Assembly: GCA_008690995.1 (NCBI GenBank)
Contig: VRMN01000010.1
Span: 124,001-188,000, forward strand
DNA: 64,000 nucleotides
Direction: 5' to 3'
Source of the DNA: Porphyridium purpureum
Taxonomy: Eukaryota
Both the position numbers and the translations under genes were made by a program. Of this stretch, positions 1,595-25,334 are shown one piece after another. The notes beneath the pieces are model-generated. The model saw nothing but the letters and a program-made list of their open reading frames with translations, made no database searches and was not told the origin of the DNA. Every line of letters begins with the position of its first letter. Position 1 is the stretch's first letter.

Positions 1595-1605
1595 CTTCCC
1601 CTTTT
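1595..1605 (-). other. Polypurine tract of copia element
   Basis: AAAAGGGGAAG on minus strand immediately before the 3' LTR. Confidence 0.85.
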
Positions 1606-5246: not shown

Positions 5247-5291
5247 TGTCGTTCCGTACGCTCAATACCTTTCAAGCTCTTAATTCATGAA

Positions 5292-5612
5292 TGTTGTAGC
5301 CTTTCCTTCTGAGAGGTGCAAGTGCGGGTTGTGCACGTGCCTTTAGGAACTCAACCCTGTCAAGACGAAAACTCAATTTCTTCAACAAATTCCGTTTGTT
5401 TAACTTCACATCTCTACCTAAAAGTATGAGCTGAAGCCTGCCAAACGACTCGCCATCCTGCTTTCATACTCTGCTCTCAGCCCACTCGAAACCGGGTCAA
5501 GTGCGTCGCACCACGCCCCTTCGCACTCGCAACCCCCTTTTCCGAAACAACCCCAAGGTTTCAAACCAAGCCGCCAAGGCGAATCACCTCAAGCAAGGGT
5601 CGCGTTCAAACA
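5292..5612 (-). repeat. 5' LTR of copia element
   Basis: Direct repeat of 1274-1594. Confidence 0.95.
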
Positions 5613-5851
5613 CACACTACCTCCGGCGTTTCGGGTGGAATGGTCGAACGATTCCGAACGTGTGCGAGCATCGGCGGTGGTTGGATGCCGACATTCGTGA
5701 GTGGCATTCGGTTTCGCCGTACGCATCGGAGTGAGCGCGCGCTAGTGCGCGGGAGGGGCGGCGGTGGAGGTTGTGTGTAGACGGGCGGGTGTGCCGTGTC
5801 CGCGAAGGGCAGCGTGCGGGCGCGGCAACGCGCGTGAAAGAGTAAAGGGAC

Positions 5852-7984
5852 ATGGCAACCGCGCTGACTTTGGTGGGGCACTCAAATGTGGTGGCCGCGG
5901 TGGACTTTTCGCCGGATGGTCGGTTTATCGTGTCCGCGAGCAATGACAAAACAGTCAAGGTGTGGGACGCGCACACGGGTGTGCGCGTGCGCACCATAGA
6001 CGGGCACTCGGGTGTAGTGCGGGCAGTGCACTTTTCGCCCGATGGCCGGTTCATCGCGTCCGGCAGCGATCACAAGACGGTGAAGGTGTGGGACGCACAC
6101 ACCGGCGCATGCGTGTGCATATTGACGGATCACTCAGAGGCGATAACTGCGGTGCGCTTCTCACCCGATGGCCGTTTCATCGTGTCCGCCAGTTTGGACG
6201 AGACGGTCAAGGTGTGGGACGCACATACCGGCGCGTGCACTCGCACCATGAACGGACACTATGAATTGGTCTGGGCGGTTCATTTTTCGCCCGATTGCCG
6301 GTTTATTGCGTCCGGCAGCGAAGACAGAACGGTCAAGGTGTGGGACGTATACACCGGCGCGTGCATTCGCACCATCTTGGGGCATTCAGGTGTGGTGCGG
6401 ACGGTGCACTTTTCGCCCGATGGCAAGCGCATCGCTTCCGGCAGCGAAGACACGACGCTGAAGCTGTGGGACGCACATACCGGCTCATGTGTACGCACCA
6501 TGACGGCGCACTCAGGTGTGGTGCGGGCGGTTCATTTTTCGCCCGATGGCCGGTTCATCGCGTCCGGCAGCGAAGACCAAGCGGTCAAAGTATGGGACGC
6601 ACACACGGGCGCGTGCGTGCGAACCATCACGGGGCACTCAAATTCGGTACGTTCGGTGCGTTTTTCCCCTGATGGCCGATTCATCGCGTCCGGCAGTGTT
6701 GACAAAACGGTCAAGGTGTGGGACACAAGCGACCTAAAGTGTGGCCCCGAAGGAACGTCAGGTGACGCTAACGAGGAAAAATATTGCAAGGACTATTGGG
6801 AGGTCGCCGACTCGGATGGGAGCCAAGCGTTGGACGCTCAGGAGGCGCTGGCGTTCTTCTCGAAGGCGCGGCTGCCGATGTCGGTGCTGCATCGGATGTG
6901 GGATGCGATAGCAACAGCTCGCGGCAAGCGTGCGCTTACCTATGACGACTTTGTGCTCGCACTGCGGTGGGTTGCGCTGGCGCAGAACGGCGAGGAGGCG
7001 AGCCTCGCACGTGTGCAGCAAGGTTCGCTGTCACTGCGCGCCAAGATCGACGTACCCGGGTGGAACCCGTTCGACAGGGTCGCGCGCACGCTGTCGGAGA
7101 CTGCGCGACACGAGGAGTACTGGAAGATGGCCGACGCAGACGGAAGTGGGGAGGTGGACGTGCATGAAGCGGTAGCGTTTTTGTCCAAGTCTGGACTGCG
7201 GAACCGCGTGCTGAATGAGATCTGGGGCCTTGCAACCAGCCAAGGGATGTTTTCGTCGCTGGACACGGAGCGGTTCAAGACTGCGCTGCGTCTGGTAGCA
7301 ATGGCACAGAAGGAAATGAAGCTGGATGTGAAGGAGGCGGCAGGTGGCGAGATGGAACTGATTGCGGACTTCAAAATCAATGCCGCGAAGCCGGCACCGG
7401 AACCGATGCCAGAGCCGATGCCAGAGCCGATGCCAGAGCCGATGCCAGAGCCAATGTCGAAGCCGATGCCGAAGCCAGTACCGAAGCCGATGCCGAAGCC
7501 GGTGCCAGAGCCGGTGCCAGAGCCGGACACCGACTTGGAGAGGATGTTTGCGGAAACTGCGCTGGATGATCTGACATGTGAGCAGCTGGCTCGAGTGCTG
7601 GAAGAGGTCTTGGAGGTTAACGGGGCCTCGGTGAGGAATGTGAGGGAGCGCCGGGTGAGCGGTGAGGCACTGCACGACATGAGGGAGTTCCAGGAGTTTG
7701 TGCAGCTTTCATTCCCGGACAAGAAGAGAGTTGAAAAGTGGGTTGCGGGGCGGAAATCGTACGAAGGATTCGAGGAATACCTGTTTGGCGTGCTTGGTGG
7801 TGATTCGGAGCGCGCCGAGCGTGCGTGCGCTTTGCTTTTAGAGTCTCACGCTGTGTCGAACTTGGACGAGTGGTTGTGGTTTCGGAAGCAGCCTAGCAAG
7901 CGAACAAGTATGAGGACGATTGTGCGGCGCTTCCCGGAGCTCGGGACGTGGCCGGGCGGGCCGGACGCGGAAGATTGGACGTAG
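5852..7984 (+). CDS. WD40(x7)-EH-EH-Pro/Glu linker-SAM-like protein, array copy 1 (710 aa)
   Basis: Seven 42-aa GH...FSPDG...WD repeats. Two EH-like EF-hand units (ADSDGSQALD...LPMSVLHRMW...[12 protein letters not shown]). PEPM repeats. SAM-like [10 protein letters not shown]...VSGEALHDM. Confidence 0.9.
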   Translation: MATALTLVGHSNVVAAVDFSPDGRFIVSASNDKTVKVWDAHTGVRVRTIDGHSGVVRAVHFSPDGRFIASGSDHKTVKVWDAHTGACVCILTDHSEAITAVRFSPDGRFIVSASLDETVKVWDAHTGACTRTMNGHYELVWAVHFSPDCRFIASGSEDRTVKVWDVYTGACIRTILGHSGVVRTVHFSPDGKRIASGSEDTTLKLWDAHTGSCVRTMTAHSGVVRAVHFSPDGRFIASGSEDQAVKVWDAHTGACVRTITGHSNSVRSVRFSPDGRFIASGSVDKTVKVWDTSDLKCGPEGTSGDANEEKYCKDYWEVADSDGSQALDAQEALAFFSKARLPMSVLHRMWDAIATARGKRALTYDDFVLALRWVALAQNGEEASLARVQQGSLSLRAKIDVPGWNPFDRVARTLSETARHEEYWKMADADGSGEVDVHEAVAFLSKSGLRNRVLNEIWGLATSQGMFSSLDTERFKTALRLVAMAQKEMKLDVKEAAGGEMELIADFKINAAKPAPEPMPEPMPEPMPEPMPEPMSKPMPKPVPKPMPKPVPEPVPEPDTDLERMFAETALDDLTCEQLARVLEEVLEVNGASVRNVRERRVSGEALHDMREFQEFVQLSFPDKKRVEKWVAGRKSYEGFEEYLFGVLGGDSERAERACALLLESHAVSNLDEWLWFRKQPSKRTSMRTIVRRFPELGTWPGGPDAEDWT

Positions 7985-9297
7985 GCCGATGCTGGTGCCT
8001 TTGAGTTTTGATGCGGACGAACAGTGTCCCGGTGTCGCGCCGGTTGCTCGTCAGTGTGTACGTGGAGCGCACGCGCGGGTGCCACTGACTGAACAGACCT
8101 TGCGAACATCGACATGGTTGCTGCGCCTGGGACGGGCTATGTTTTCCGGCTGGAAGCGAGAATGTTGTTTTCTTTCTGCGGAACGCCTGGAGGCCGGGCC
8201 CGTGTAGCGTGCTGTGGAACGCTTGATTGGCGCTGGCTGGTGTATCCAAGCACATTTGCGCGTTTCGGGCGTCAACGCCTGCACGGGCTGCGCTCTGCTA
8301 GCCACGCGCCAAGTTCATCCCGGTGCTGTATGAAAGGATCCTCCTGCCTGTGCGCTGACGCAACGATTACAGAACGAGGATTGAGACCAGTGGCTCAGCG
8401 CGAATGTGCGCCGAAAATCAGCAAGACCCGCTGGTTCGAATGCTGTCTGCCAGATGGGCGCGAGTCTGCGCATGTTGTGTGCTCCGCGTGACAGTCTCAT
8501 GCGAACCCTTCAAATGGCATTTCCATAAAAATGGCTGGGGACATTTTTGGTGTCGTGCGCAAGCTCTTTGCAAATACCACGCGCACGGACACATTCCTCG
8601 AGCAACTTTGGTACTCAGCATGTACGCCGTGCCCGCGATACGAACACGCTTTCTCACTGCGCTATGCCTACCTACGCACACCATGCCCATGAATCCGTTG
8701 GCCGCTCGCCGTGACCGCTCCATCTGACGCTTGCGCACAGGTTTTCACTCATCGGAATCCTCGTGAATACGATCGTGCGACTCGCACTCGGCTCCATCAC
8801 AATTCTCGCAATACTTCTGCCCATGACAACTCCGTCAACAGATGTTGTTGAAGACGGCTTCCCACTCCTCTCCGCGTACTGTAAAATCCGGTCGTGTCCT
8901 CTCTCTCGACGGATGAAAGAGCTGAGCCTGGACGCTTGCGCGGGGAGGTCCTGAGCTCGCGTGCACTGCACGGTAGGCTACTTCACGTAGATTACCTCTA
9001 GGAAAAGTTCCGTTGTTCAATCAGCCTTACCTTTTATTGTGGATTGAGAAACTCGGAGAAGTTGGTAGATGGTTGATCATATAGGCACCCCTCGGCTCGC
9101 AAAAGCCCGCCTGGACTCAAAAACTGCGTCGAGCGCATCAATCACAACCCCTCAAGTATTGAGGAATCGCACCTTATCACAATGACCGGCCTCGCAAGCA
9201 ATGACGACTATCTCCGAAAACCTGAAGTGCGCCCATTTGCCCAAACCATGCCACACTCAAAATTCATTGCTCTTGTCTCACTGCGTACTTAGCAGCA

Positions 9298-10669
9298 CAG
9301 TCCTTCGCCAGTAAATGCGTCTCAGACAATTAGCACGCTGCAAAATTTGTCCATTTTCATAGTAAATTATGAAAGTTTACTATGAAGACGTGTTTCGGAG
9401 GGGGAAACACGATGCTCAAACAAATAGGACACAAGCGTTTTGGCGCGCCCGGCGGCGGCCAGTCGACAAGAAGAGGGCGATTTCGGGCGGGAAATGGGGC
9501 GCGCGGGTGCGTTGACCGAGGCGGAGAAGCGTGCCATCTGGGGATGGCGCGCGGCGGGGCTCAAGCTGTCCGATATAGCCACACGCGCGGATCGGTCCAG
9601 AAAAGCCGTAAAAAGCTTTCTGGACCAGCCCGACGCGACCCCAGGCTACGTCGGCAACCAGAATACCCGTAAATTCACAGGACCCGCTCAAACGCGTGTT
9701 CTGAATAAACTTAGAGCGGCTCCTAGGAGCCCTCTAAAGGCTCTCACAATGCAGGTCAATACCGGCAGGTCCCAAAGGAAGCCGGTAAGCCGTGAGACAG
9801 TGAGGCGCAATATGGCTGATGATCTGTCCTTTCGGCGTGCCATCGTGAGGCAGCCTCTTTCCCGTGAGAATCGGCTGCGTCGCGTGGCATTTGCCATGCA
9901 AAATCTGAACAAAATTGAAGAGCATAAGAAAGTCATCTTTACGGATGAAAAGAAGTTCAATTTAGATGGCCCTGATGGGTATTCTGGTCAGTGGGTCCGG
10001 ACAGGAGAGTTCCCGGATCGAGTCCGTCGTCATACGGGCGGCGGAAGTGTGATGTTTTGGATGGCAATTTCTTCCGCCGGGAAGATGGCGCTCCTGAAGA
10101 CCCCAGCAAGGATCACTTCAGAAAACTATGTGGCCATGCTGGAGTCCTCTCGAGTGGCGACCATCGTCAGTGAAACCCATCCAGAAGGATGGACATTCAT
10201 GCAGGACAATGCCCCTGCTCATGTGGCGCGGAATACAAAGTCCTTCTTCGCGCGCGAAGGATGGCATGTAATGGATTGGCCAGCGTACTCGCCAGACCTG
10301 AATCCGGTGGAGAACGTGTGGAGCATTATGTCGCGCCGAATGTACGCCGGAAACAGGCAGTATGAGTCTCTCTCGGAGCTGGAGGCTGAAATCATGGAAG
10401 TGTGGGCGTCGATCACGAACGCAGAGGTCGGGAGCCTTGTGACGGGGTGGAATGCACGTCTACACCGGTGCGTGAACATGGAGGGCGCGAACGTCCAGAA
10501 CGTTTAGTTCCTAGATCTCCATATAGTCTCTCTTTGTCCATTGAGCTATTTGATCGAGCATCCTGTTTCCCTCGCCATAACAGGTCTTCATAATAAAAAT
10601 TCATAATTCACTGAAGAAGAACAAACTTTGCAGTTTGCTGATTGTTTGAGACGCACTTTACACGCACGG
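9298..10669 (+). mobile_element. Tc1/mariner DNA transposon with long imperfect TIRs
   Basis: ~130-bp imperfect inverted repeats: GTAAATGCGTCTCAGACAATTAGCACGCTGCAAAATTTG at ~9311 versus the reverse complement at ~10620-10660. TA at 10670-10671. Left boundary approximate. Confidence 0.85.
9494..10507 (+). CDS. Tc1-family DD34E transposase, intact (337 aa from ATG)
   Basis: FTDEKKF, QDNAPAH, WPAYSPDLNPVENVW; 34 residues between the second D and the E; N-terminal HTH region. Confidence 0.93.
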   Translation: MGRAGALTEAEKRAIWGWRAAGLKLSDIATRADRSRKAVKSFLDQPDATPGYVGNQNTRKFTGPAQTRVLNKLRAAPRSPLKALTMQVNTGRSQRKPVSRETVRRNMADDLSFRRAIVRQPLSRENRLRRVAFAMQNLNKIEEHKKVIFTDEKKFNLDGPDGYSGQWVRTGEFPDRVRRHTGGGSVMFWMAISSAGKMALLKTPARITSENYVAMLESSRVATIVSETHPEGWTFMQDNAPAHVARNTKSFFAREGWHVMDWPAYSPDLNPVENVWSIMSRRMYAGNRQYESLSELEAEIMEVWASITNAEVGSLVTGWNARLHRCVNMEGANVQNV

Positions 10670-10751
10670 TACTCACCTCCTCCTCTTCTTCCTTGCTGCC
10701 AAAGGACCGTCGTGCAGCTACCTAACAACTTGCCGGCTCTTATTCCCTCAA

Positions 10752-11058
10752 TGTTATCCGTTCGACCCCAGTCACCTAGAACGGTTCGGTTAATCCAAAA
10801 CCGGTAAGCCGTTAAACCGGTAGACCGTTTAACCGTTTCTAAAAGCTTCTAGAGGTTCCAGAACCTTCGAGACGCGCGCAGAAATGCCAATGATTTGCAT
10901 TGTCATTTCTCTTGGCGCCTTGCTGTCCCTGGCGGAAGTAAGGGTATAAAAAGGCGACGCGCCTGCTCGGACTAGCCGGTCAGGTCTTGCTCGGAGAGAG
11001 AAGAGGTAGGAAGAAGAGACCGACAGTAAAAAAACACTCAGATACACAGCTGATAACA
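10752..11058. mobile_element. LTR copy (same family as 22924-23216 and 23297-23609) without matching TSD
   Basis: TGTTATCCGTTCGACCCC...TGATAACA, with TATAAAA inside. Flanks CTCAA/ATTGA do not match. Confidence 0.75.
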
Positions 11059-12079
11059 ATTGACGCGTGCTTTCTCCAATGTCCAGCGCCGCTTGATCTC
11101 CTGGGCTCTGTCCAGAAAGCGCGTGGTCCTCAATTAAGTCCTGTGCATCCTCAGTTTCGCCGTTTAATATCTGTAGCGGGCGGTGCTCCCGCAGTGCGCG
11201 CAGAAGTCCTGCGCGCTGACGAGGGACCGGCTCAATGCCTAGGTTTGTTGCTGCGTCTCGCACTTCAGACACTGACAGCCTCTCGAGTGTCTCCTCGGTG
11301 TTCTATCTCACCCGTCCTCCCTCTCCTTTCTTTATTCTGGCCATTCTTCTCTTTCTAGTTCTTCTCGTGATCTTCTCCTGAAGCCCGCCGCTAACGACGG
11401 GCTTAAACTGTGGGAGATCGCATCAGCCCTGAGTTTAATCGAGTGTGAGTAATATTTAGGGCCCGGGAGGTCCAGAGGGGATACCATTGTACGGAAACGA
11501 TTAAGCGGTTATTGGATCGGTAGAACACTCGGATAGGTCAATTAGCTCCACGTTTCGAGGTGGAGGAGAAGCGTGCCGATACACGCGATACGCTTTCCAA
11601 CCTAAAAAGACACCGAATCGCGATTGTCAGTGCTTTTGCGTTGTGTCGTACTATCAAGGTGCGTATCTACTGGCAGTTTTGAGAGCGGATAGCTGCGCGC
11701 ACCTCCCGTGACCCGCGCAGCTTATTGCTTCGGTTTCCCGTTACGAGTCAACTAAAAGCTTTACCAGCCCCTTCTTACTGTCGTTCATCTTTATTCCCCG
11801 TCAGGCTATCCCACGGGGCGGAAGGTTTGTTCTTTTTCCATACACCCTTAACCTTTATTTTTGTTCTAGTGCTACTTTCCCGCCGCCGCTCGCCGCGTAT
11901 TTATACGCTGGTCAAGAAATTGAGGGTTCGGGTAACCCTCAAAGTAACTTGGTACATCTACACCTGTACTTGGTCAATTATTCACACGAATAATTGACAC
12001 TTTTTCTGTTCCACTCTGACGAGAACTCTACATTGCGACACGTCCACCGAGAGGCGGCTGGCTTTTGTAGCGCGCAGCC

Positions 12080-12990
12080 TAGCACGGAGCCCTTATTATG
12101 ACCGCAGTTATAACAAGGGTTGTGGGGAAGCGTGCTCTTGGATCTTTCACAACAGAAGATTCGCAGGTAACGGAGAGGCAGCTCATGTTATTGATCCGTA
12201 ACGGACTTGGGAATACACCTTTTCGTGTTTTCTGGTGGTATCTAGAGGGGAGCCCGATCATGTGGGGATAGCGGGAACTATCTGTGGATGTTGGTGTGCA
12301 GAGTACCATATCGGCGCACTGGCCCGTGGACAGGACGTTACGCGACCAAACTCAGCTCATCTAATTTTTCAGCTGGCCCTACCCAGGGACACGCTGGCAT
12401 TGATCACGATTCACCACCACGATTCTAAAACACACACCTTATCAGTTACCGGTTGGACGGTTTATCGACTACACCTTAACCGTTACCTGACCCGCTACTT
12501 TTGCACGCACCTCAACACGCATACGCGCATTGTGCGTGCACTTATGGCGCTACGCGTTCAAGGGTGACGCAAGTGGTGGTCATAGAAAACACCCGCGCCT
12601 CGATGCAGGCTCGCGCAGACGCGTTCTGAGTCTGCGCTGTTTTCCATGCGTGCTGCGCGAGCCGCAGATGCAATGCGCCGTGGGTGAGGAAAACCGCCAG
12701 TCGCGATTTTCATGGCCCCGTTTCGATGTTTCATATGTCAATTCGACGCCAGATGCGGCGTTTCGGGTGGAATGTCGCGATAGAAAATGCGAGCATGCAC
12801 GAGTAATGCGGCGATAGTTGGATGTCGGGAATCGCGAGTGACGTCTGGTTTCGCCGCACGCAACGGAGAGAGCGCGCGCGAGTAAGCGGAAGGGGCGGCG
12901 GTGAAGAGTTGTGCAGGGACGGACGGGTGTGTGGTTCACGCAAGCGGTAGCGTGTCGGTGCGGCGACGCGCGCGTGGATCGGAAAGGGGC
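12080..12990 (+). repeat. Duplicated upstream flank of the WD40 array unit (homologous to ~22420-23870 and in part to ~620-890 plus 5617-5851 and ~16500-16940)
   Basis: Shared blocks such as GTGGACAGGACGT(T/C)ACGCGACCAA, CGCACCTCAACACGCATACGCGC, GGCGTTTCGGGTGGAATG. Confidence 0.75.
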
Positions 12991-15075
12991 ATGGCGCGTC
13001 CGTTGACTTTGGTGGGGCACTCGGATACGGTGGTCGCGGTGGACTTTTCGCCCGATGGCCGGCTCATCGCGTCCGGCAGCTGGGATAACACGGTCAAGGT
13101 GTGGGACGCACACACCCGCGCTTGTGTGCGCACCATGGACCGCCACTCTCGTAAGGTGTGCGCGGTCCACTTTTCGCCCGATAGCCGGTTAATCGCGTCC
13201 GGCAGCCATGACAAAACGGTCAAGGTGTGGGACACGCACACCGGCGCGTGCGTGCACACATTGACGGGGCACTCAGATTTTGTGGAGGCGGTTCATTTTT
13301 CGCCCGATGGCCGTTTCATCGCGTCCGGCAGCGATGACGAGACGGTAAAGGTGTGGGATGCACACACGGGCGCGTGCGTGCACACGTTGACGGGGCACTC
13401 AGATTGTGTGGAGGCGGTTCGCTTTTCGCCCAATGGTCGATTCATTGCTTCCGGCAGCGATGACGAAAGGGTCAAGATTTGGAACGCGCAAACCGGCGCG
13501 TACGTGCGCTCATTGATCGGGCACTCGGATTGGGTTAAGGTGGTGCACTTTTCGCCCGACGGCCGGTTCATCGCGTCCGGTAGCGACGACGAGACGGTAA
13601 AGGTATGGGATGCAAACACTGGTGCATGCGTGCGCACATTGACGGGGCACTCAGGGGCGGTGAGCGCGGTGCACTTTTCGCCCGATGGCCGGTTCATTGC
13701 TTCCGGCAGCGACGACGAGACGGTTAGGGTATGGGACGCAAACACCGGCGCGTGCGTTCGCACATTGACAGGGCACTCAGGCGCGGTGGGCGCTGTGCAG
13801 TTTTCGGTCGACGGCCGCTTTATCGCGTCCGGTAACGACAACAAGAAGGTGAAGTTGTGGGACACAACCGACCTGAAGTGTGGCCCCGAAGGAACGCCAG
13901 GTGACGTTGACGAGGAAAAATATTGCAAGGACTATTGGGAGGTCGCCGACTCGGATGGGAGCCAAGCGTTGGACGCTCAGGAGGCGCTGGCGTTCTTCTC
14001 GAAGGCGCGGCTGCCGATGTCGGTGCTGCATCGGATGTGGGATGAGATTGCGATAGCTCGCGGCAAGCGTGCGCTTACCTATGACGACTTTGTGCTCGCA
14101 CTGCGGTGGGTTGCGCTGGCGCAGAACGGCGAGGAGGCGAGCCTCGCACGTGTGCAGCAAGGTTCGCTGTCACTGCGCGCCAAGATCGACGTACCCGGGT
14201 GGAACCCGTTCGACAGGGTCGCGCGCACGCTGTCAGAGACTGCGCGACACGAGGAGTACTGGAAGGTGGCCGACGCGGACGGAAGCGGGGAGGTGGACGT
14301 GCATGAAGCGGTAGCGTTTTTGTCCAAGTCTGGACTGCGGAGCCGCGTGCTGAATGAGATCTGGGGCCTTGCAACCAGCCAAGGGATGTTTTCGTCGCTG
14401 GACACGGAGCGGTTCAAGACTGCGCTGCGTCTGGTAGCAATGGCACAGAAGGAAATGAAGCTGGATGTGAAGGAGGCGGCAGGCGGCGAGATGGAACTGA
14501 TTGCGGACTTCAAAATCAATGCCGCGAAGCCGGAACCGGAACCGATGCCAGAGCCGATGCCAGAGCCAATGCCGAAGCCGATGCCAGAGCCAATGCCGAA
14601 GCCGATGCCGAAGCCGGTCACTGACTTGGAGAGGATGCTTGCGGAAACTGCGCTGGATGATCTGACGTGTGAGCAGCTGGCTCGAGTGCTGGAAGAGGTC
14701 TTGGAGGTTGATGGGGCCTCGGTGAGGAATGTGAGGGAGCGCCAGGTGAGCGGTGAGGCACTGCACGACATGAAGGAGTTCCAGGAGTTTGTGCAGCTGT
14801 CGTTCCCGGACAAGAAGAGAGTTGAAAAGTGGGTGGCGGGGCGGAAATCGTACGAAGGATTCGAGGAATACCTGTTTGGCGTGCTTGGTGGTGATTCGGA
14901 GCGCGCCGAGCGTGCGTGCGCTTTGCTTTTAGAGTCTCACGCTGTGTCGAACTTGGACGAGTGGTTGTGGTTTCGGAAGCAGCCCAGCAAGCGAACAAAT
15001 ATGAGAGTTATTGTGCGGCGCTTCCCGGAGCTCGGGACGTGGCCGGGCAGGCCGGAGGTGGAGGACTGGAAGTAG
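12991..15075 (+). CDS. WD40(x7)-EH-EH-linker-SAM-like protein, array copy 2
   Basis: ATG at 12991 (MARPLTLVGHS) aligns with the copy 1 start; C-terminal half nearly identical to copy 1. Confidence 0.9.
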   Translation: MARPLTLVGHSDTVVAVDFSPDGRLIASGSWDNTVKVWDAHTRACVRTMDRHSRKVCAVHFSPDSRLIASGSHDKTVKVWDTHTGACVHTLTGHSDFVEAVHFSPDGRFIASGSDDETVKVWDAHTGACVHTLTGHSDCVEAVRFSPNGRFIASGSDDERVKIWNAQTGAYVRSLIGHSDWVKVVHFSPDGRFIASGSDDETVKVWDANTGACVRTLTGHSGAVSAVHFSPDGRFIASGSDDETVRVWDANTGACVRTLTGHSGAVGAVQFSVDGRFIASGNDNKKVKLWDTTDLKCGPEGTPGDVDEEKYCKDYWEVADSDGSQALDAQEALAFFSKARLPMSVLHRMWDEIAIARGKRALTYDDFVLALRWVALAQNGEEASLARVQQGSLSLRAKIDVPGWNPFDRVARTLSETARHEEYWKVADADGSGEVDVHEAVAFLSKSGLRSRVLNEIWGLATSQGMFSSLDTERFKTALRLVAMAQKEMKLDVKEAAGGEMELIADFKINAAKPEPEPMPEPMPEPMPKPMPEPMPKPMPKPVTDLERMLAETALDDLTCEQLARVLEEVLEVDGASVRNVRERQVSGEALHDMKEFQEFVQLSFPDKKRVEKWVAGRKSYEGFEEYLFGVLGGDSERAERACALLLESHAVSNLDEWLWFRKQPSKRTNMRVIVRRFPELGTWPGRPEVEDWK

Positions 15076-16940
15076 GTCAGCGCTGGTGTCTTTGGGTTTT
15101 GAAAGGGACGAGTAGTGTCCCGGTGTCGTGCCGGTCGCTCGTGAGCGTGTGTCGGGTGCGCACGTAAGGGTGCCACTGACTGAACAGACCTTGCGAACAT
15201 CGACATGGTTGCTGCGCCTGGGACGGGCTATGTTTTCTGGCGCGTCGCAATAATGTCATTGTGTTGCTGCGGAAGGCCTGCCATGGAGCAGTTTATTGTT
15301 GCTGGCTGAAATATCCAAGCGCGGTCGCGCGTTTCCGGCGCCAGTGGCTGCACGGGCTGCGCTCTGCAAGCCACCTGCGAAGTTAATCCGGATGCGGTGT
15401 AAAACAAAGCTCGTGCTTACGCGCTGCTGCGACGGTTGCAAAGCGAGGATTGGAACCAGTGGCTCGGTGCGAATGTCCGCCAAAAATCACCAAGCCTCGC
15501 CAGTTTATGTGCGTGCAGCCAGATGGGCCTGAGTCCGCGGATGTTGTGTGCTCCCCAGGACGGTCTGATCTGGGATACTGTGTATGGCATGTCCACAAAA
15601 ATTGACTGGTGATTTAATACTTGGCCGGGCGTGATATTGCTGGGATCGTGCGCAAGCTCTTTGTAAATGTCACGCGCACAGGGACACATTCCTCGAGCAA
15701 CTATGGCATTCATCATCTACGCCGTGCCCGTGCAGTGTGAAAGTGCTTCCTCATCCACAACATTCGCACCCGCGCCCACCATATCCGCGAGTTTCTTGGT
15801 GACTCGCTGCGACCGCTCCATGTGACTCTTCCTGACACGTCGCCACTAGCTTCCAAAACACCGCCTTGCAGCTATCGCGGACGTCGTTTGATGCTCTTGC
15901 TCGTCGCGATTGTCTGAACTGACCGCACGGTACTCATGTCTGGACAAGTTCCAGAAGTCGGGCCTGTACGCGTAAGGTTGGATTCTCGTTTGTCTCCCTG
16001 GAATTGCAACTGTTGAAATACACGTGTTGTTGCTTTCGTTTGTTTACACCAAGCGCGGGGTCTGCCCGAACGTGAGCCGGTTCCTCCAAAGCTCGCAGAG
16101 AGATGTCGCACTGCCGAGTTGCTCTACTCCAGGCAGTGTCGCGAATGAATAAGACCCCTTCTTGTTTTCACAAACTTTTTCCTTATTGTTTTTACATTTA
16201 TTTTCAAAGTTGCATAGCTCCGCAAGCGGCCCTTCGTTTACACCCGACGGCACTGCCACGCGCCGATGTGTCAATTGCACTAAGGCCCTGGTGGACACGC
16301 ATGCACACGGATCGGCATTGTTCTGGTTGGTGATCTTGTCTTGCTGGTACGTTGTATCATGATCAACGCTGTCTAGGAAATGCTGGCACGACTGCTTGTC
16401 TGCACGTGGCTCAGTGGTACAGCCTGACAATGACGTGCGCTCTGATAAAGTGTTGAAAGTGGTTTTGACAAACACGAACTAGCGCGTTATGCATCCACCT
16501 CCAGAGCTGCGCGGTCGAGGGCGGGGCGGGTTGCGGTCACACAACATGCGCGCACGTCCATGCAGACGCGCACAGACGCGTTCTGATTCTGCACTGTCTA
16601 TGGTGCGTGCTACTCGGCAGCAGGCGCGATATGTCATCGGGCGGGAAAACGCCAGTCGCTATTTACACAGCCGCGTTACGATATTTCGGGCCTCCATTCG
16701 GCGCCAGATCCGGCGTTTCGGGTGGAATGGAAGAAAATGCGAGCGCGCGCGCTTAGCGGCGGTGGATGGATGTCGGGAATCGTGATTGGCGTCTAGTTTC
16801 GCCGCACGGAACGGAGTGGGCGCGCACGAGTGTGTGGGAGGGCCGGTGGTGAAGGCCTGTTTGTGGACGGGCGGGTGTGCGGTTGCCGCAAAAGAACACG
16901 GGAAGTGCGCGGCGACGCGCACGTGAAGCGAAAAAGAGGG

Positions 16941-19136
16941 ATGGCGATCGCGTTGAATTTGGTAGGGCACTCGTATGCGGTGGTCGCCCTGGACTTTTCG
17001 CCCGATGACCGCTTCATCGTGTCCGGAAGCTTTGACGACACGATCAAGGTGTGGGACGCACACAGCGGCGCGTGCTTGCGCACATTGACGGAGCACTCAG
17101 ATTGGCTGAGTGCGGTTCACTTTTCGCCCGACGGCCAGTTCATCGCGTCCGGCAGCCATGACGGAACGATCAAGGTGTGGGACGCACACACCGGCGCGTG
17201 CGTGCGCACATTGACGGAGCACTCAAATTTGGTTTTCACGGTGCGCTTTTCGCCCGATGGCCGGTTCATCGCGTCCGGCGGCAGCGACAGAACGGCCAAG
17301 GTGTGGGATGCATATACCGGCGCGTGCGTGCGTACCGTCATGGGGCACTCAAATTCCGTAAGTTCGGTGTACTTTTCGCCCGATGGCCGCTTCATCGCGT
17401 CCGGCAGCTGGGACAAAACGGTCAGGATGTGGGACACACACACCGGTGCATGCGAGCACACATTGACGGGACACTCAGGTGCGGTAAGCGCGGTGCACTT
17501 TTCGCCCGATGGCCGGTACATCGCGTCCGGCAGCGAGGATACGACGGTCAAGGTTTGGGATGCACAAACCGGCGCGTGCGTGCGCACAGTGGAGGGGCAC
17601 TCAGATGCGGTGAGCGCGATTCACTTCTCGCCCGATGGCCGGTTCATCGTGTCTGGCAGCAAAGACCAAGCGGTCAAGGTATGGGATGCACACACCGGCG
17701 CGTGCGTACGCACATTGATGGGGCACTCGAACTCGGTGCGTGTGGTGCTTTTTTCGCCCGACGGCCGCGTCGTCGCGTCTGGCGGCGGCGACAAAACGGC
17801 CAAGGTGTGGGACACGAGCGACCTCCAGTGTGGCCCCGAAGGAACGTCAAGCGCCGCGGACGAGGAAAATTATTGCAAAGATTATTGGAAGGTCGTCGAC
17901 TCGGATCGGAGCGGAGAGTTGGACGCTCAGAATGCACTGGTATTCTTCTCGAAGGCGCGGTTGCCGATCTCGGTTCTGTATCGGATGTGGGACGAGATTG
18001 CGACAGCTCGCGGCAAGCGCGCGCTCACCTACGACGACTTTGTGCTCGCACTGCGGTGGGTTGCGCTGGCGCAGAACGGCGAGGAGGCGAGCCTCGCACG
18101 TGTGCAGCAAGGTTCGTTGTCCTTGCACGCCAAGATCGACGTACCGGGTTGGAACCGGTTTGACACGGTTTTGCGCACGCCGTTGGAGACAGCGCGCCAT
18201 GAGGAGTACTGGAAGGTGGCTGTCGCAGACGGAAGCGGGGAGGTGGACGTGCATGAAGCGGTAGCGTTTTTGTCCAAGTCTGGACTGCGGAACCGCGTGC
18301 TGAATGAGATCTGGGGCCTTGCAACCAGTCAAGGGGTTTTTTCGTCCCTGGACACGGAGCGGTTCAAGACTGCGTTGCGTCTGGTGGCAATGGCGCAGAA
18401 GGGAATGAGGCTGGATGTGAAGGAGGCGGCAGGTGGCGAGATGGAACTGATTGCGGACTTCAAAATTAATGTCGCGAAGCCGGCGCCCGAGCCGGCGCCC
18501 GAGCAGGCGCCAAAACCGGTGCCGGAGCCTGTGCCAGAACCAGTGCCAGAGCCGGCGCCAGAACCGGTGCCAGAGCCGGTGCCAGAACCGTTGCCAGAAC
18601 CGGTGCCAGAACCGGTGCTAGAGCCGGTGTCGGAGCCGGTGTCAGATCCGTTCAGGCGGTCCCGAAACGACAGCCAGGGTGCTGACTTGAAGAAGACGCT
18701 TGCGGAAACTGCGCTGGATGATCTGACATGTGAGCAGCTGGCTCGAGTGCTGCAAGAGGTCTTCCAGGTTGATGAGGCCTCGGTGAGGAATGTGAGGGAG
18801 CGCAAGTTGAACGGTGACGCGCTGCACGACATGAGGGAGTTTCAAGAGCTTGCAAGGCTGTCATTTCCGGACAAGAAGAAAGTTGAAAAGTGGGTGGCGG
18901 GGCGGAAATCGTACGAAGGATTCGAGGAATACCTGTTTGGCGTGCTTGGTGGTGATTCGGAGCGCGCCGAGCGTGCGTGCGCTTTGCTTTTAGAGTCTCA
19001 CGCTGTGTCGAACTTGGACGAGTGGTTGTGGTTTCGGAAGCAGCCCAGCAAGCGGGCAAATATGAGAGTTATTGTGCGGCGCTTCCCGGAGCTCGGGACG
19101 TGGCCGGGCGGGCCGGAGGTGGAGGACTGGAAGTAG
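16941..19136 (+). CDS. WD40(x7)-EH-EH-linker-SAM-like protein, array copy 3 (most divergent, longest linker)
   Basis: ATG at 16941 ([11 protein letters not shown]); same architecture with PEPV/PEPA linker. Confidence 0.9.
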
Positions 19137-19969
19137 GTCAGCGCTGGTGTCTTTGGGTTCTGGAAGGGCTGAGCACTGTCCCGGTGTCGCGCCGGTCGCT
19201 CGTGAGCGTGTGTCGGGTGCGCACATGAGGGGGCCACTGGCTGAACAGACCCTGCGAACACCGACATGGTTGCTGCGCCTGGGACGGGCTATGTTTTCTG
19301 GCGCGTCGCAATAATGTCATTGTGTTGCTGCGGAAGGCCTGCCATGTAGCACTTTATTGTTGCTGGCTGAAATATCCAAGCGCGGTCGCGCGTTTCCGGC
19401 GCCAGTGGCTGCACGGACTGCGCTCTGCTAGCCACGCGCCAAGTTCATCCTGGTGCTGTCGAAAAGGATGCTCGTGCCTCTGCTCTGATGCGACGGTTAC
19501 ACAACGAGGATTAGGACCAATGGCTCGGTGCAAATGTGCGCCGAAAATCAGCAGGCCTCGCCAGTGTATGTACGTGCAGCCAGATGGGCCTGAGTCCGCG
19601 GATGTTCTGTGCTCCCCAGAACGGTCTGATGAGGGATACTTTGTGTCGTATGTCCACAAAGATGGCTGGTGACATTTTTGGGAGCGTATGCAGGCTCTTT
19701 ACAAATGCCATGCGCACGAACACATTCCTCGAGCAACTTTGGCACTCGGCATCTACGCCTTGCTCGCGCGCCGCGAGCGTGCTTCCTCAAACACACCATG
19801 TGAAGTGCGACCAAATCAAATAGGGGACAGTACGTTTTTTCAAGTTTCACTAGCAAAATGATCTGCTTTACTATAAAAGGGAAAGAGGTCCGGTGAAAAG
19901 GGAATGTGGAATAGGTCGAAACGGATAGGGGACACGGCACATTTCTGGCCATTACTCAGCCATAGAGAA

Positions 19970-20994
19970 TCAGAATTGGTCGCGGTTTCCTTGCACGTAC
20001 GCGCCTTGAAGACACGCACAGTCGAATATTCGTTTCGGCAGCGACGCGTACAAATTGGCCATCACAGGCTGGTCCAAAGTCTCCCAAGCCAGTAAAATGG
20101 CATTCTTGAGCTCTAGCACCGTCTGATACTGCCTTGCACCCTCGTAAACCTTGCGCGCTAGTATTCCCCACAGATTTTCGATAATATTGAAGTCCGGCGA
20201 GTACGCTGGCCAGTCTAGGAGCTCCACATTCTCGTTATTCATGAAATTCTTAACCAGGCAACTTTTGTGCACTGGCGCGTTATTCTGCTGAAAACCCATG
20301 TTCGGGCCCACTATCTGACGGCAGCGGTCCAGCATATTGTCCTCTCGAAGCAGGGAGAAATATTTTGCAGCCGTAAATGACCCTCAATAAAATGAAGGTG
20401 AATCTTTCCTCTTGCAGAAATTGCACTCCAAACCATGCATCCACCGCCGCCGGAATGTCGCGACCAAACGTTCGGAACGTCCGCCGTACGCTCAACCCAC
20501 GTCTTGTGGAAACCATCGGGTCCGTCCAGGTTGAACTTCTTTTCGTCAGTGAACACAATTGCGGCCCAATTGGTTTGTTCCAGCTGATGATGCCTGGCCC
20601 AGGCCAGCCTCTTGAGCTTGCGATTGAGTGTCAGTGGCGGACAAGCTGGAATTTTGCGGTATGCATGCGTGACACTCATTGCCTTCCTGATTGTCGTCAA
20701 GCTTTGGATTGGTTTAGCTCCACGAATTCGCAGAGCTGCTTGAACCTGACGTGCCGTGTGAATGTTCGGAAGCTTAGCGATGTTAAAAATCTTTGTTTTG
20801 ACCGCCTCAGTCAGCTTTGAAGCGTTCACATTGGCATATGTCTGGCAGTAATCGTTTGGAGCCGACAAATAGCGGGAAACCATTTTCTTCGAGTGCCCAA
20901 CCTTGGTCGTAGTGGCTCTCACGCTGTTGCCCGACTCTCGGAGACTCTGAATACGTCCTTTCTCGTCGCCCGTAAGGCCAATATTGCGCCCCAT
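19970..20994 (-). pseudogene. Tc1 transposase pseudogene (frameshift near 20378; catalytic D replaced, QQNNAP)
   Basis: FTDEKKFNLDGPDG in ORF 20311..20994 and WPAYSPDFNIIENLW in ORF 19970..20335. Residual inverted motif AAACGGATA(G/C)GGGACAC at ~19919 and ~21090. Confidence 0.88.
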
Positions 20995-21699
20995 GGAGTC
21001 AAAATCGAGCTTTTCACGAGCTGCGATGGATCCGCACTTCTCCGCTTACACTGAACAGCCGACTTCCGAGATATTTTGCTTTCACGCAGTGTCCCGTATC
21101 CGTTTTGAGCCAAAACTTTCGTCATAACCGTTGCAAACGAACCCGCCCGTTCTACGTTCATTGCAAAAGATCAAAATTTACCGTCAATCAACAATTTTTC
21201 TAGAAACCGTAGATAAAACAAACCACTGAGTCGTTGGAACGGTTACGGGATGATATGTCTTTAGCCGATTTGCCACCTAGACCGATTTTGTGACCGTGGT
21301 GACCGGGTTTTTGGTCCGAACACCCGAGTGCCTGCATCAGGCGGTCTTTAAGTCGATCAACCGTGATAAAACAGGGTCGCGGGGGCAATGCACATGAGGC
21401 ATTCGGACGTGAGCATCCGAAGTCACGCTTTCACCAGTCTCGCGGAGGCCAGGAAGGTGCACATGCTCCGTTTGTAGTTTGCGTTGCATTCCTGCAGCGG
21501 CCTCGGGAAAAGTCTTCAAAAGTAGCGCTGTGCGGGGCTGCGAGCTCATCTAGATAGAGAATATAACAACAGACATAGACAACTGCAAAGGCTGTTCAGT
21601 TCGGCGAAGAATATCGGTACGATTACACACAGGCTTTAACCATGGAACCGTTTGACTGTCCCCTTTCCATTTTCGTCGCACTTTGGTGGCAAAGCTTGT

Positions 21700-22345
21700 G
21701 ATGAAGCACGATTTCTCGACACGTCCTCCAGTGCGTGGCACTTCCCGCAAAAACACGCCACGTCCCTCATGTAGCTCCCGCCACACCCCGAGCAGAGTAT
21801 GGCTTCCGTCAGTACTCCACAGAGAAAACACGAACACGTATATTCCCAAGCCTTTTGCACACAATAATGTCAGCTACCTTTTCATCCTTAAGTTTTCCAG
21901 AACTTTTCATCTTTTCTAGCCCTAAAATAAATGCAGTCATCGTTGGCAGAAATGTAGCGTTAATTGTGATACATTCGAGTGCGAAGGTCGCCATCGTATT
22001 CGTGAGGATTCCAGAACTTCACACTTTTTAGAAAGTATGCAGCTGGCAAAGTTGAGCGTAGCACCGATAGCGAAGGAGCTGAAGACCAACGGCTCAGCTG
22101 TCCCCGCCGCAGCACATTTGCTGTTCGGAAACTTCACTCCGCTGAAAGGAGACCTCCAACCAAGCGACCACCTTTGTAACGCCAACCTTACATGTAAAAC
22201 TTTTCCAAGTCGCACTCCGTACCCAAGCCGCCGTGGTCGCGCTCTGCGCCGAGCTTCGTACGCGGGTTATAACCCAAGAGATGCTTTCTCTTGCGGTCGT
22301 GTCGCCAGCTGACAATCACAGCCGAGAGCTTCCCTTTTCAAGCCA
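21700..22345. repeat. Degenerate repeat, homologous to ~29900-30550 and in its right part to ~165-390
   Basis: Shared blocks AGCTCCCGCCACACCCC, CAGTACTCCACA, CCCAAGCCTTTTGCACACAA, GCCGAGCTTCG. Confidence 0.75.
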
Positions 22346-22923
22346 CAATGTCAAGATTTGGATGTGATAAAATGCATTTCTCCCGCCTCGCACTCATCGT
22401 CTGATCAGACATGCTCCATCTAGAGAACGTAGCTTGGCACGCGCTTATTTAATGATGTTGAGAAGGACGCACAGAAGATTCGCTAGGCGAGGTAGCTCAT
22501 GTAATGTTTTTGTAAAGGACTAGAGAATACACACTGTTGTGATTTCTTGTGGGATTTAGACCGGAGCCTGATCATCTAGGGATCGCAGGAGCTATTTTTG
22601 GACGTTGGTGTGAGCGGGAGACGCAACGGCGCACCGGTGCGTGGACAGGACGTCACGCGACCAAGCTCAGCTTATTTCCGACTTGCCCCAGGCGAGGACT
22701 CGCTGGCTTTGATTGGAAATCCCCGAGGTTATTCCGGCATTGTCGGTAACCTGCCTAACGGCTTGTCGACTACACGTTAAACGTTACCCGACCCGCTACT
22801 CGCGGCGCACCTCAACACGCATACGCGCGTTATGTGTGCACCTGCGACGCTGCGCGGTCGAAGGTGACGCGGCTGGCGCGTGTGTCAATGAAGACGCGCT
22901 CTGATCCTGCGCGCGTCTCCCTT

Positions 22924-23216
22924 TGTTATCCGTTCGACCCCAGTCACCTAGAACGGTTCGGTTAATCCGAAATCGGTAAGCCGTTAACCGGTAGACCGTT
23001 TAACCGTTTCTAGAAGCTTCTAGAGGTTCCAGAACCTTCTAGACGCGCGCAGAAATGCCAATGATTTGCATTGTCAATTCTCTTGGCGCCTTGCTGTCCC
23101 TGGCGGAAGTAACGGTATAAAAAGGCGACGCGCCTGCCCGGACTAGCCGGTCACGTCTTGCTCGGAGAGATGAGAGGAGGCAGAAGAGAGAGAATAAAGG
23201 CACAGCATTGGTAACA
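22924..23216. mobile_element. Solo LTR (293 bp)
   Basis: TGTTA...TAACA termini, perfect 5-bp TSD CCCTT. Confidence 0.9.
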
Positions 23217-23296
23217 CCCTTGCGTGCCGCGCCAATCGCAGGCGCAATGCGCCGTGGGGAGAAAAATGCCTGTCTCGATTTCCAGCCAAGATGCGG

Positions 23297-23609
23297 TGTT
23301 ATCAGCTGTGTATCTGATTTTTTTTTATTGTCGGTCTGTTCATTTTTCCTCTCCTTACCTCTTCTCTCTCCGAGCAAGACCTGATCGGCTTGTCCGGGCA
23401 GGCATGTCGCGATTCTATACCCTTACTTCCACCAGGGACAGGAAGGCGCCACGAGAAATGACAATGCAAATCATTGTCATTTCTGCGCACGTCTAGTTTC
23501 CGGAAGCGCTAGAAGCTTCTAGAAACGGTTAAAATGTCTAACGGTTCAACGGCTTAAAGGTTTTGCATGAACCGAACCGTTCTAGGTGACTGGGGTCGAA
23601 CGGATAACG
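23297..23609. mobile_element. Solo LTR of the same family in opposite orientation (313 bp)
   Basis: TGTTA...TAACG termini, perfect 5-bp TSD TGCGG; reverse-complement homolog of 22924-23216 and 10752-11058. Confidence 0.88.
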
Positions 23610-23873
23610 TGCGGCATCTCGTCCGTCAATTCGACGCCAGATCCTGCGTTTCGGGTGGAATGGTTTAGCGAATGCGCGCACACGAACGATGCGGCTCTGT
23701 TTCGATGCCGGGAGTCGTGATTGGCGACGAGTGTTGCCGCGCGAGACCGAGTGGGCGCGCACGAGTGTGGGGGAGGGCCGGTGGTGAAGGGTTGTTTGCG
23801 GACGGGCGGGTAGGCGGTTACCGCAAAAGACACGAAGCGTGCGTGGCGACGCAGGCGTGGAAGGGAAAAGGGG

Positions 23874-25334
23874 ATGACAACCGCGTTGACGCTGGAGGGT
23901 CACTCAGATGCGGTGAGCGCGGTGCACTTTTCGCCCGATGGCCGGTTCATTGCTTCCGGCAGCGACGACGAGACGGTTAGGGTATGGGACGCAAACACCG
24001 GCGCGTGCGTTCGCACATTGACAGGGCACTCAGGCGCGGTGGGCGCTGTGCAGTTTTCGGTCGACGGCCGCTTTATCGCGTCCGGTAACGACAACAAGAA
24101 GGTGAAGTTGTGGGACACAACCGACCTGAAGTGTGGCCCCGAAGGAACGCCAGGTGACGCTGACGAGGAAAAATATTGCAAGGATTATTGGGAGGTCGCC
24201 GACTCGGATGGGAGCCAAGAGTTGGACGCTCAGGAGGCGCTGGCGTTCTTCTCGAAGGCGCGGCTGCCGATGTCGGTGCTGCATCGGATGTGGGATGAGA
24301 TTGCGATAGCTCGCGGCAAGCGTGCGCTCACCTACGACGACTTTGTGCTCGCACTGCGGTGGGTTGCGCTGGCGCAGAACGGCGAGGAGGCGAGCCTCGC
24401 ACGTGTGCAGCAAGGTTCGCTGTCACTGCGCGCCAAGATCGACGTACCCGGGTGGAACCCGTTCGACAGGGTCGCGCGCACGCTGTCGGAGACAGCGCGG
24501 CACGAGGAGTACTGGAAGATGGCCGACGCAGACGGAAGCGGGGAGGTGGACGTGCATGAAGCGGTAGCGTTTTTGTCCAAGTCTGGACTGCGGAGCTGCG
24601 TGCTGAATGAGATCTGGGGCTTTGCAACCAGCCAAGGGATGTTTTCGTCGCTGGACACGGAGCGTTTCAAGACTGCGCTGCGTCTGGTAGCAATGGCACA
24701 GAAGGAAATGAAGCTGGATGTGAAGGAGGCGGCAGGCGGCGAGATGGAACTGATTGCGGACTTCAAAATCAATGCCGCGAAGCCGGCACCGGAACCGATG
24801 CCGAAGCCGAAGCCGATGCCAGAGCCGATGCCAGAGCCGATGCCAGAGCCGATGCCAGAGCCGGTGCCAGAGCCGGACACGGACTTGGAGAGGATGCTTG
24901 CGGAAACTGCGCTGGATGATCTGACGTGTGAGCAGCTGGCTCGAGTGCTGGAAGAGGTCTTGGAGGTTAACGGGGCCTCGGTGAGGAATGTGAGGGAGCG
25001 CCAGGTGAGCGGTGAGGCCTTGCACGACATGAGGGAGTTCCAGGAGTTTGTGCAGCTGTCGTTCCCGGACAAGAAGAGAGTTGAAAAGTGGGTGGCGGGG
25101 CGGAAATCGTACGAAGGATTCGAGGAATACCTGTTTGGCGTGCTTGGTGGTGATTCGGAGCGCGCCGAGCGTGCGTGCGCTTTGCTTTTGGAATCTCACG
25201 CTGTGTCGAACTTGGACGAGTGGTTGTGGTTTCGGAAGCAGCCCAGCAAGCGGGCAAATATGAGAGTTATTGTGCGGCGCTTCCCGGAGCTCGGGACGTG
25301 GCCGGGCGGGCCGGAGGTGGAGGACTGGAAGTAG
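23874..25334 (+). CDS. WD40(x2)-EH-EH-linker-SAM-like protein, array copy 4 (repeat-contracted, 486 aa)
   Basis: Only two WD40 repeats, essentially identical to repeats 6-7 of copy 2; rest intact. Confidence 0.85.
   Translation: MTTALTLEGHSDAVSAVHFSPDGRFIASGSDDETVRVWDANTGACVRTLTGHSGAVGAVQFSVDGRFIASGNDNKKVKLWDTTDLKCGPEGTPGDADEEKYCKDYWEVADSDGSQELDAQEALAFFSKARLPMSVLHRMWDEIAIARGKRALTYDDFVLALRWVALAQNGEEASLARVQQGSLSLRAKIDVPGWNPFDRVARTLSETARHEEYWKMADADGSGEVDVHEAVAFLSKSGLRSCVLNEIWGFATSQGMFSSLDTERFKTALRLVAMAQKEMKLDVKEAAGGEMELIADFKINAAKPAPEPMPKPKPMPEPMPEPMPEPMPEPVPEPDTDLERMLAETALDDLTCEQLARVLEEVLEVNGASVRNVRERQVSGEALHDMREFQEFVQLSFPDKKRVEKWVAGRKSYEGFEEYLFGVLGGDSERAERACALLLESHAVSNLDEWLWFRKQPSKRANMRVIVRRFPELGTWPGGPEVEDWK

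Follow-up and report, generated by a model that had tools for sequence, protein, structure and literature searches.

A 64,000-nucleotide stretch of the red alga Porphyridium purpureum (assembly GCA_008690995.1, contig VRMN01000010.1, positions 124,001 to 188,000, forward strand; hereafter the window), eukaryotic and intron-poor in character, raises the question of what a tandem array of genes joining a WD40 propeller to two EH domains might serve for. A first-pass annotation of this array had proposed a diversifying receptor family, in which a variable sensor lacking NACHT is coupled to membrane trafficking. Our analysis revealed an undescribed architecture, which we read as varying a known evolutionary strategy; the evidence for diversifying selection is moderate. 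The reading that we favour, to which we would give slightly less than an even chance, is that of a recombining, lineage-specific family of predicted cytosolic adaptors for variable ligands, tied to endocytosis, whose ligands would probably be non-self.

The array extends from the ATG at 5852 to the stop codon at 25334 and comprises four open, uninterrupted frames on the plus strand (genes A, B, C and D; 710, 694, 731 and 486 amino acids; Table 1), all of which encode, in the same order, a WD40 array, a pair of EH domains, a linker rich in Pro and Glu, and a 150-residue C-terminal domain. The WD40 repeats, with a period of 126 bp (42 residues), number seven each in A, B and C and two in D, 23 altogether; Pfam returned the same WD40 counts and two EH domains in each protein. 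The coordinates, the four genes, the repeat number and period, and all the motifs quoted in the first-pass annotation were present in the sequence, and tblastn found no fifth copy in the 64-kb window. No P-loop motif occurred in the six frames of 5852..25334, no HET, NACHT or NB-ARC family was found among the best 25 Pfam matches per protein, and every part of the proteins was assigned to WD40, EH, linker or SAM. The first WD repeat begins at residue 2 and in-frame stops lie 2-48 codons upstream, which leaves no N-terminal HET domain. Introns or an upstream NTPase exon were rejected, as none appeared among the 15 of 27 RNA joints listed; a 54-base skip at 24788-24843 was taken as a linker length variant because of its CC..TG ends and its position in the linker repeat. 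Hydropathy indicated no membrane span, and there was no clear signal peptide. Together with the SAM-fold model described below, the Pfam results and the P-loop scan bear out the proposed WD40-EH-EH-linker-SAM-like architecture without NACHT.

The repeats were numbered so that the His of GH is site 9. Among the 23 repeats, the highest entropy was found at sites 14, 30, 12 and 32, followed by 7, 11, 40 and 17, and H9, F18, S19, S27 and W37 were invariant. In 27 repeats of other P. purpureum members of the family (P0001-P0004 and P0022, described below; one irregular inserted segment of P0004 was excluded), the five most variable sites were 30, 12, 14, 11 and 32, and the entropy profiles of the two sets were correlated (Spearman 0.74). 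Variation at sites 12, 14, 30 and 32 is concentrated beyond chance, with 21 distinct four-residue combinations in the 23 repeats, and the predicted net charge of the top face is +3 in A, -7 in B and +3 in C. These four sites show the same 2-16-2 spacing as the selected codons 7, 9, 25 and 27 of HNWD proteins, which flank the conserved codons 8 and 26 (Paoletti et al., PMC1805685), and the top-face hotspots R1-2, R1 and D-1, defined with spacing 2 and 16 (Wu et al., PMC3419727), map to sites 12, 14 and 30. The correspondence of the variable sites with the HNWD pattern and the propeller top face is thus sound. The further claim that such a pattern marks HET-E/HNWD receptors found no support in that form, since highly repetitive WD40 proteins as a class carry variable hotspots on a conserved scaffold (Hu et al. 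2017, PMC5587647), as the array repeats also do, so that the pattern alone is no mark of an immune receptor.

Calling the repeat scaffold near-identical was too strong, as the 23 repeats share on average 73% DNA and 64% protein identity in pairwise comparison. The mean protein identity of repeats within a gene is 0.64 in A, 0.68 in B and 0.62 in C; against the value of at least 0.7 for highly repetitive proteins (PMC5587647), this range of 0.62-0.68 would make the array moderately repetitive, with the reservation that our identity measure is not exactly theirs. The solved structures closest to the propeller in sequence (2ymu, WRAP-T, Tako8 and PkwA) are repetitive or designed symmetric propellers. 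Modelled from its sequence alone, full-length B yielded a propeller of 27 strands, with pLDDT below 50 over most of the remainder, and the C-terminal part of this model was disregarded. In P0003 and P0002, two repeat types alternate, one with GYWQ and the other with KWDx at sites 12, 14, 30 and 32, which is a mark of the amplification of a two-blade unit.

Selection on the repeats was assessed with our own codon models (M0 likelihood -1531.7, compared with -1532.0 in IQ-TREE) on 22 repeats, D2 being omitted as identical to B7, with the leader codons of first repeats and the tail codons of last repeats masked. M8 was preferred over M7 (p 1e-5), and the tests of dN/dS above 1 were borderline (M8 over M8a, p 0.031; M2a over M1a, p 0.050). 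Sites 12, 14, 30 and 32, treated as one class that was taken from the HNWD paper but chosen after the entropy table had been seen, gave a dN/dS of 1.82 versus 0.22 elsewhere (p 0.003). The four-site value was 1.67 under gamma-distributed synonymous or overall site rates (p 0.026 and 0.044) and 2.28 on the nucleotide tree. The observed statistic was reached by none of the neutral simulations without (0/111) or with (0/93) mosaic genealogies, nor by those with added rate variation (0/94 and 0/85). For single sites, dN/dS was 2.8 at site 30 (p 0.002), 1.7 at site 14, 1.36 at site 32 and 0.98 at site 12, and the scaffold sites, at about 0.2, are under purifying selection. Some excess of non-synonymous change at the top face was therefore seen, and the repeat sequences suggest that diversifying selection at these sites is probably real.

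Recombination has left traces in the array. Internal repeats were 76.9% identical at the same position across genes, 76.2% at other positions and 77.0% within a gene; positional orthology of the repeats is lost. Neighbouring informative sites were more compatible than shuffled ones (four-gamete test, p 0.004). Gene D shows no mismatch to repeats 6-7 of B over nucleotides 37-286 of the frame and has a different leader, and this combination of its own leader with a B6-B7 tract indicates that five repeats were lost, or that conversion took place after their loss. Repeat loss is the commonest rearrangement of HNWD genes (PMC2873952). The absent positional orthology and the D/B tract show that repeats are exchanged within and between paralogs, as in HNWD.

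The remainder of the genes has a different history. Between A and B, the differing four-fold sites number 43 of 122 in the WD part, compared with 5 of 110 for the EH domains and 5 of 65 for the C-terminal domain, and dN/dS stands near 0.3 in each of these regions; the upstream flanks are 72-79% alike in all gene pairs, and the downstream flanks are 77-94% alike, forming a mosaic that varies by pair. At the protein level, the description of the EH and C-terminal parts as almost invariant suits A, B and D (96-98% and 93-97% identical, respectively) and fails for C (87-88% and 85-89%). Because the EH-SAM half is constant at silent sites too, recent gene conversion and not selection alone accounts for it. 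Its constancy was accordingly rejected as proof of strong selection, and the view that it signals a conserved effector is not sustained, the uniformity being largely recent homogenisation. To judge from its silent sites, then, the EH-SAM half stands out as an island of recent gene conversion, and the flanks and the WD part suggest the probable age of the duplications. That the propeller mostly escapes homogenisation would fit selection for distinct faces, but it is no proof of selection, because the flanks escape too. The duplicated unit takes in 650-850 bp of 3′ flank (7985-8750, 15076-15920, 19137-19800 and 25335-26200), which is transcribed on the sense strand, and a pile-up of read ends near 19811 suggests a long 3′ untranslated region.

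Proteins with the WD40-EH-EH-SAM architecture were found by word-index searches only in P. purpureum (P0001-P0004, P0020, P0021 and P0022); these searches returned no relative outside Porphyridium, which is weak evidence of absence. P0001-P0004 are 67-73% identical over the non-WD part, P0020 is a near-copy of P0003, P0021 consists of the EH pair and C-terminal domain without WD40, and P0022 has two repeats, one EH and a shortened C-terminal domain. Six of the seven are annotated as ‘Vegetative incompatibility protein HET-E-1’ and one as ‘EGFR substrate 15-like 1’. None of the four array proteins had an exact database match, and three of the five neighbouring frames had one in NCBI, UniRef or EukProt, from which we infer that the array is unannotated or was modelled differently. 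The family may thus have up to eleven known members, if all belong to one genome. The relatives form a multi-copy family and not the conserved single-copy ortholog that would have spoken against diversification. None of 76 candidate viral contigs carried a relative, and a metagenome locus (L001) was rejected as one, being a tyrosine integrase of bacterial type that was hit because of the motif used for searching. We found no description of a WD40-EH-EH-SAM family in the open literature covered, although a mention in a gene table is possible; term searches of the main texts of the P. purpureum genome paper (PMC6811547), a transcriptome paper (PMC12843361) and PMC8891106 gave no passage on it. 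The earlier impression that the architecture belongs to no described family is in line with this.

Sense-strand RNA reads covered all four genes in three of three RNA-seq runs (one study; 20-25% of each run examined). Depth in the WD bins was 0.1-4 in A, 2-3 in B and about 1 in C, where some reads were antisense, and it rose over the EH-SAM parts, where reads cross-map between paralogs. The majority of reads were 95-99% alike to the genes, so that the strain or the copy differs. Contigs of run X1, a non-independent run that may have supplied the window itself, matched parts of A, B and D without difference. Their summed depth was 94-110 over the EH-SAM part of D versus 15-22 over the WD parts, a contrast that hints at collapsed copies and gives no copy number. 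One X1 contig joining 8724 to 15823 hints that the inserted elements are missing from some copy or allele.

The EH pair was recognised by Pfam (PF12763, 50.9 bits, cut-off 22, in two stretches), and alignment to AtEH1 EH1.1 showed that all four genes retain the pocket Trp in each of their EH domains. Among solved structures, the closest relatives are 6yeu (AtEH1/Pan1 EH1.1, PMC8144573) and 1qjt (Eps15 EH1). In AtEH1 EH1.1, the pocket Trp is required for NPF binding, and the domain also binds phosphatidic acid (PMC8144573). EH1 and EH2 of the array proteins are 44% identical, and in a tree of 27 domain rows (four of seven adaptors, P0020 excluded) they group together (92/82, not starred) beside the first EH of canonical EH-EH-coiled-coil adaptors; both therefore look like duplicates of one first-type EH. 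A, B and D have an NPF motif in the segment separating their EH domains, with NRF at that place in C, and NPF was seen by eye at the corresponding place in P0001, P0002, P0004 and P0021. The Pro/Glu linker (50 residues in A, 34 in B, 71 in C and 36 in D) bears DPF in C and GPF or DPF in P0002, P0003, P0021 and P0022.

The C-terminal domain had no sequence match in Pfam or PDB searches, and matches to RFC1, ANAPC8 and ribosomal S6 were dismissed as chance. A model built from an 8-row alignment reached a mean pLDDT of 77, with 86-92 for residues 11-70. The first ten Foldseek matches were the tandem SAM domains of SARM1, all weak (E 0.48 or more), and re-alignment, which re-ranked Foldseek's own matches, placed SAM-containing structures in the top 38 positions. 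Residues 1-75 superposed on the Shank3 SAM with a Z of 8.4 (rmsd 2.5 Å, 70 of 72 residues aligned). One predicted five-helix SAM fold is thus well supported. A second SAM in the tail is possible: the whole domain aligned with the SARM1 tandem at a Z of 7.0 (rmsd 5.3 Å, 122 residues), the second half by itself gave 3.7 or less, and the two halves could not be aligned to each other. An atlas search returned SAM clusters at 0.79-0.83 ranked behind unrelated matches, a lead only, and no match for the second half.

These parts suggest how adaptors for varying ligands could work. The diversified top face of the seven-bladed propeller would bind varying ligands, likely foreign proteins; the EH pair would attach the complex to acidic membranes and to endocytic proteins bearing NPF; and clustering through the predicted SAM domain would give avidity. 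SAM domains are known to form polymers, and the SARM1 octamer reportedly offers an analogy for such clustering. By analogy with the known domains we infer top-face binding, EH binding to NPF and lipid, and SAM self-association. More speculatively, the internal NPF (or DPF/GPF) may keep an EH pocket closed in cis, or join one molecule to another in trans, until avidity rises through ligand binding and SAM clustering and cargo is routed into endocytic or autophagic vesicles, and the ligands may come from parasites or other non-self sources.

Several results weigh against this reading. Variable hotspots are generic to highly repetitive WD40 proteins (PMC5587647), and the best repeat identity over 100 amino acids (72% in A, 81% in B and 71% in C) falls below the figure of more than 85% by which fungal NLRs with high internal repeat conservation are recognised (PMC4986451). 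In the selection tests, only site 30 was significant alone, with site 12 at 0.98; the class without site 30 dropped to 1.50 (p 0.075); a separate synonymous rate for the four sites gave alpha 1.34 and beta 1.84 (p 0.38); under strong rate variation the simple test gave false positives at the nominal 5% level in 12 of 85 runs, of which set 4/85 reached 1.82; and the region-wide dN/dS between paralogs was similar in the WD, EH and C-terminal parts (0.2-0.7). Moreover, expression of the array genes is low, gene D alone cannot close a propeller, the array is riddled with transposons, the proteins carry neither a switch nor an enzymatic effector domain, and no link between these genes and infection was found.

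The strongest alternative, which we consider unlikely, is that the genes are young duplicates under relaxed constraint, in which the scaffold is kept and the top face drifts while unequal crossing-over and gene conversion act in a transposon-rich region. It would account for the non-significant test with a local synonymous rate and the dependence on site 30, for the dN/dS near 1 at sites 7, 11 and 12, for the borderline whole-repeat tests, and for the low expression and the truncated members D, P0021 and P0022; the silent divergence of the WD part also matches that of the upstream flanks and so reflects age. However, the pooled dN/dS above 1 survived the synonymous-rate models and four sets of neutral simulations including mosaic genealogies, all four frames are open with a scaffold under purifying selection, and the same sites vary in the 27 repeats of other members. 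The per-site dN/dS analysis called for in the first-pass annotation therefore came out divided, with a pooled four-site value above 1 in most tests and no significance once the synonymous rate is local.

Another explanation, to our mind less probable still, holds that each propeller is specialised on a different host cargo, such as wall-polysaccharide enzymes or transporters, for EH-dependent endocytosis without any non-self role. The grouping of the EH domains with the first EH of Eps15-like adaptors, the endocytic nature of their best solved relatives, the internal NPF, DPF and GPF motifs, the distinct face charge of each paralog and transcription in ordinary RNA-seq runs are all what such cargo adaptors would show, but blade shuffling, repeat loss and lost positional orthology would destroy a fixed host partnership, and the restriction to Porphyridium in the word-index searches is unlike typical core adaptors. 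Shuffling, loss of repeats and domains, and likely diversifying selection speak for ligands that change and are non-self, more than for a fixed cargo of the host.

Comparison with known systems places the array between several of them. Like HNWD genes (het-d, het-e, het-r; Podospora anserina), it has WD40 repeats of 126 bp that are exchanged both inside a gene and from gene to gene, loss of repeats (PMC1805685, PMC2873952) and four variable, probably diversifying, binding-face sites of equal spacing (PMC1805685). Unlike them, it lacks HET and NACHT, its propeller is N-terminal, single and seven-bladed, its repeats are less alike (64% protein identity) with a weaker selection signal, and its output modules are EH-EH and SAM. 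With the repetitive WD40 proteins of Hu et al. (2017, PMC5587647) it shares recently amplified repeats, a conserved scaffold and variable hotspots, but its propeller is fused to an EH pair and SAM in a tandem multigene family. Tandem EH domains with the NPF-pocket Trp link it to the Eps15 and AtEH/Pan1 adaptors, the canonical EH-EH-coiled-coil proteins being 30-33% identical; neither their coiled coil nor an acidic aromatic or motif-rich tail was seen on inspection against P0026-P0032, the array having WD40 before the EH pair and a Pro/Glu linker and SAM fold behind it. As in SARM1 (ARM-SAM-SAM-TIR), a repeat sensor region precedes SAM, and the Shank3 SAM superposes on the first half of the C-terminal domain, but TIR or another enzyme is absent and the Pfam and PDB searches gave no sequence-level similarity. 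Red algae possess NB-ARC+WD40 genes, three of which are induced by oomycete infection in Pyropia (PMC6928737), and their architecture differs from that of the array.

The array can thus be likened to the recognition domain of HNWD proteins, yet it belongs with neither HNWD nor NLRs, since HET, NACHT and high repeat conservation are all lacking. It is very improbable that these genes are remnants or decoys of such receptors, that is, propeller fragments of a STAND protein that need a separate NTPase or no longer work, for although six of seven relatives carry the automatic name HET-E-1 and red algae have NB-ARC+WD40 genes (PMC6928737), no HET, NACHT or NB-ARC family (best 25 Pfam matches per protein) and no P-loop (array frames) was found, the WD array starts at residue 2 behind in-frame stops 2-48 codons upstream, and EH and SAM are intact. 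The proposal of a diversifying receptor therefore keeps its support from the architecture, the top-face variation and the recombination, and loses that from the supposed HET-E mark and the conserved effector. An extended form of the favoured reading, adaptors for varying non-self ligands, seems to us doubtful: a red alga would have independently evolved an innate repertoire free of NTPases, in which shuffled propellers bind parasite proteins, SAM polymers and an NPF-EH latch, in place of STAND-switch cell death, deliver the target to endocytic or autophagic membranes, and gene conversion keeps the output half uniform.

Table 1. Features of the array in the window.
Feature	Position	Strand	Evidence
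Gene A, 710 aa: WD40 x7-EH-EH-Pro/Glu linker-SAM-helical tail	5852..7984	+	frames, Pfam, sense RNA reads
Gene A WD40 array, seven 126-bp repeats	5855..6730	+	Pfam, repeat analysis
Gene A first EH domain, with retained pocket Trp (aa 350)	6770..6997	+	Pfam, alignment to solved EH
Gene A internal NPF between EH domains (aa 405)	7064..7072	+	
Gene A second EH domain, with retained pocket Trp (aa 458)	7094..7321	+	alignment to solved EH
Gene A Pro/Glu-rich linker, 12-bp units	7382..7531	+	
Gene A SAM-fold domain (predicted)	7532..7756	+	structure model, Shank3 SAM superposition
Gene A second helical subdomain, possibly degenerate second SAM	7757..7981	+	model aligned to SARM1
Tc1/mariner element separating A from B, with terminal inverted repeats and a transposase frame of 359 codons, open (9428-10507)	9313..10658	+	Pfam
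Gene B, 694 aa, architecture as A	12991..15075	+	
Gene B WD part	12994..13869	+	
Gene B EH pair	13870..14520	+	
Gene B linker	14521..14622	+	
Gene B C-terminal domain	14623..15072	+	
Gene C, 731 aa, most divergent copy	16941..19136	+	
Gene C WD part	16944..17819	+	
Gene C EH pair	17820..18470	+	
Gene C linker (DPF motif)	18471..18683	+	
Gene C C-terminal domain	18684..19133	+	
Second Tc1/mariner-like element, between C and D, frame interrupted	19803..21683	-	Pfam
Gene D, 486 aa, two WD40 repeats only	23874..25334	+	
Gene D EH pair	24123..24773	+	
Gene D linker	24774..24881	+	
Gene D C-terminal domain	24882..25331	+	

Tc1/mariner elements and short repeated elements lie between the array genes. 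RNA over the transposase frame between A and B was mostly on the opposite strand, possibly as read-through or as antisense from copies elsewhere. An element of about 300 bp is present in three copies (10752-11058, 22924-23216 and 23297-23608), the latter two as an inverted pair just upstream of D; nothing else in the array was covered nearly as deeply by RNA, and loose ends point to many copies elsewhere. Directly upstream of A, a Ty1/copia-like LTR retrotransposon (1274-5613; 322-bp LTRs 98.4% alike) carries a 1100-codon minus-strand frame with integrase and reverse transcriptase. Downstream of the array, at 26545-28740 on the minus strand, two consecutive frames split by a stop, with an HSLRKG motif at the end and no Pfam match, are presumably a broken Crypton-type tyrosine recombinase. 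Pfam identified further neighbours as an MCM-family helicase (33817-37371), which we take to be MCM9-like, a voltage-gated ion channel (39970-41871), a STELLO glycosyltransferase (48976-50544) and a BRCT protein (52391-53923). A radical SAM protein with a BATS domain behind a likely transit peptide (44119-45843, minus strand) is presumably HydG/ThiH-like, and a perfect 16.5-copy TTTCGG microsatellite lies at 58122-58220.

To our knowledge, almost nothing is known about parasite recognition in unicellular red algae. A family that is compact, expressed and free of introns and has a variable face like that of HNWD proteins offers concrete candidates in a culturable and widely studied microalga, and the HET-E-1 labels on P. 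purpureum proteins conceal an undescribed architecture. If the favoured reading is true, repeat-shuffled WD40 sensors could operate without a STAND switch and would be tied to trafficking rather than to cell death.

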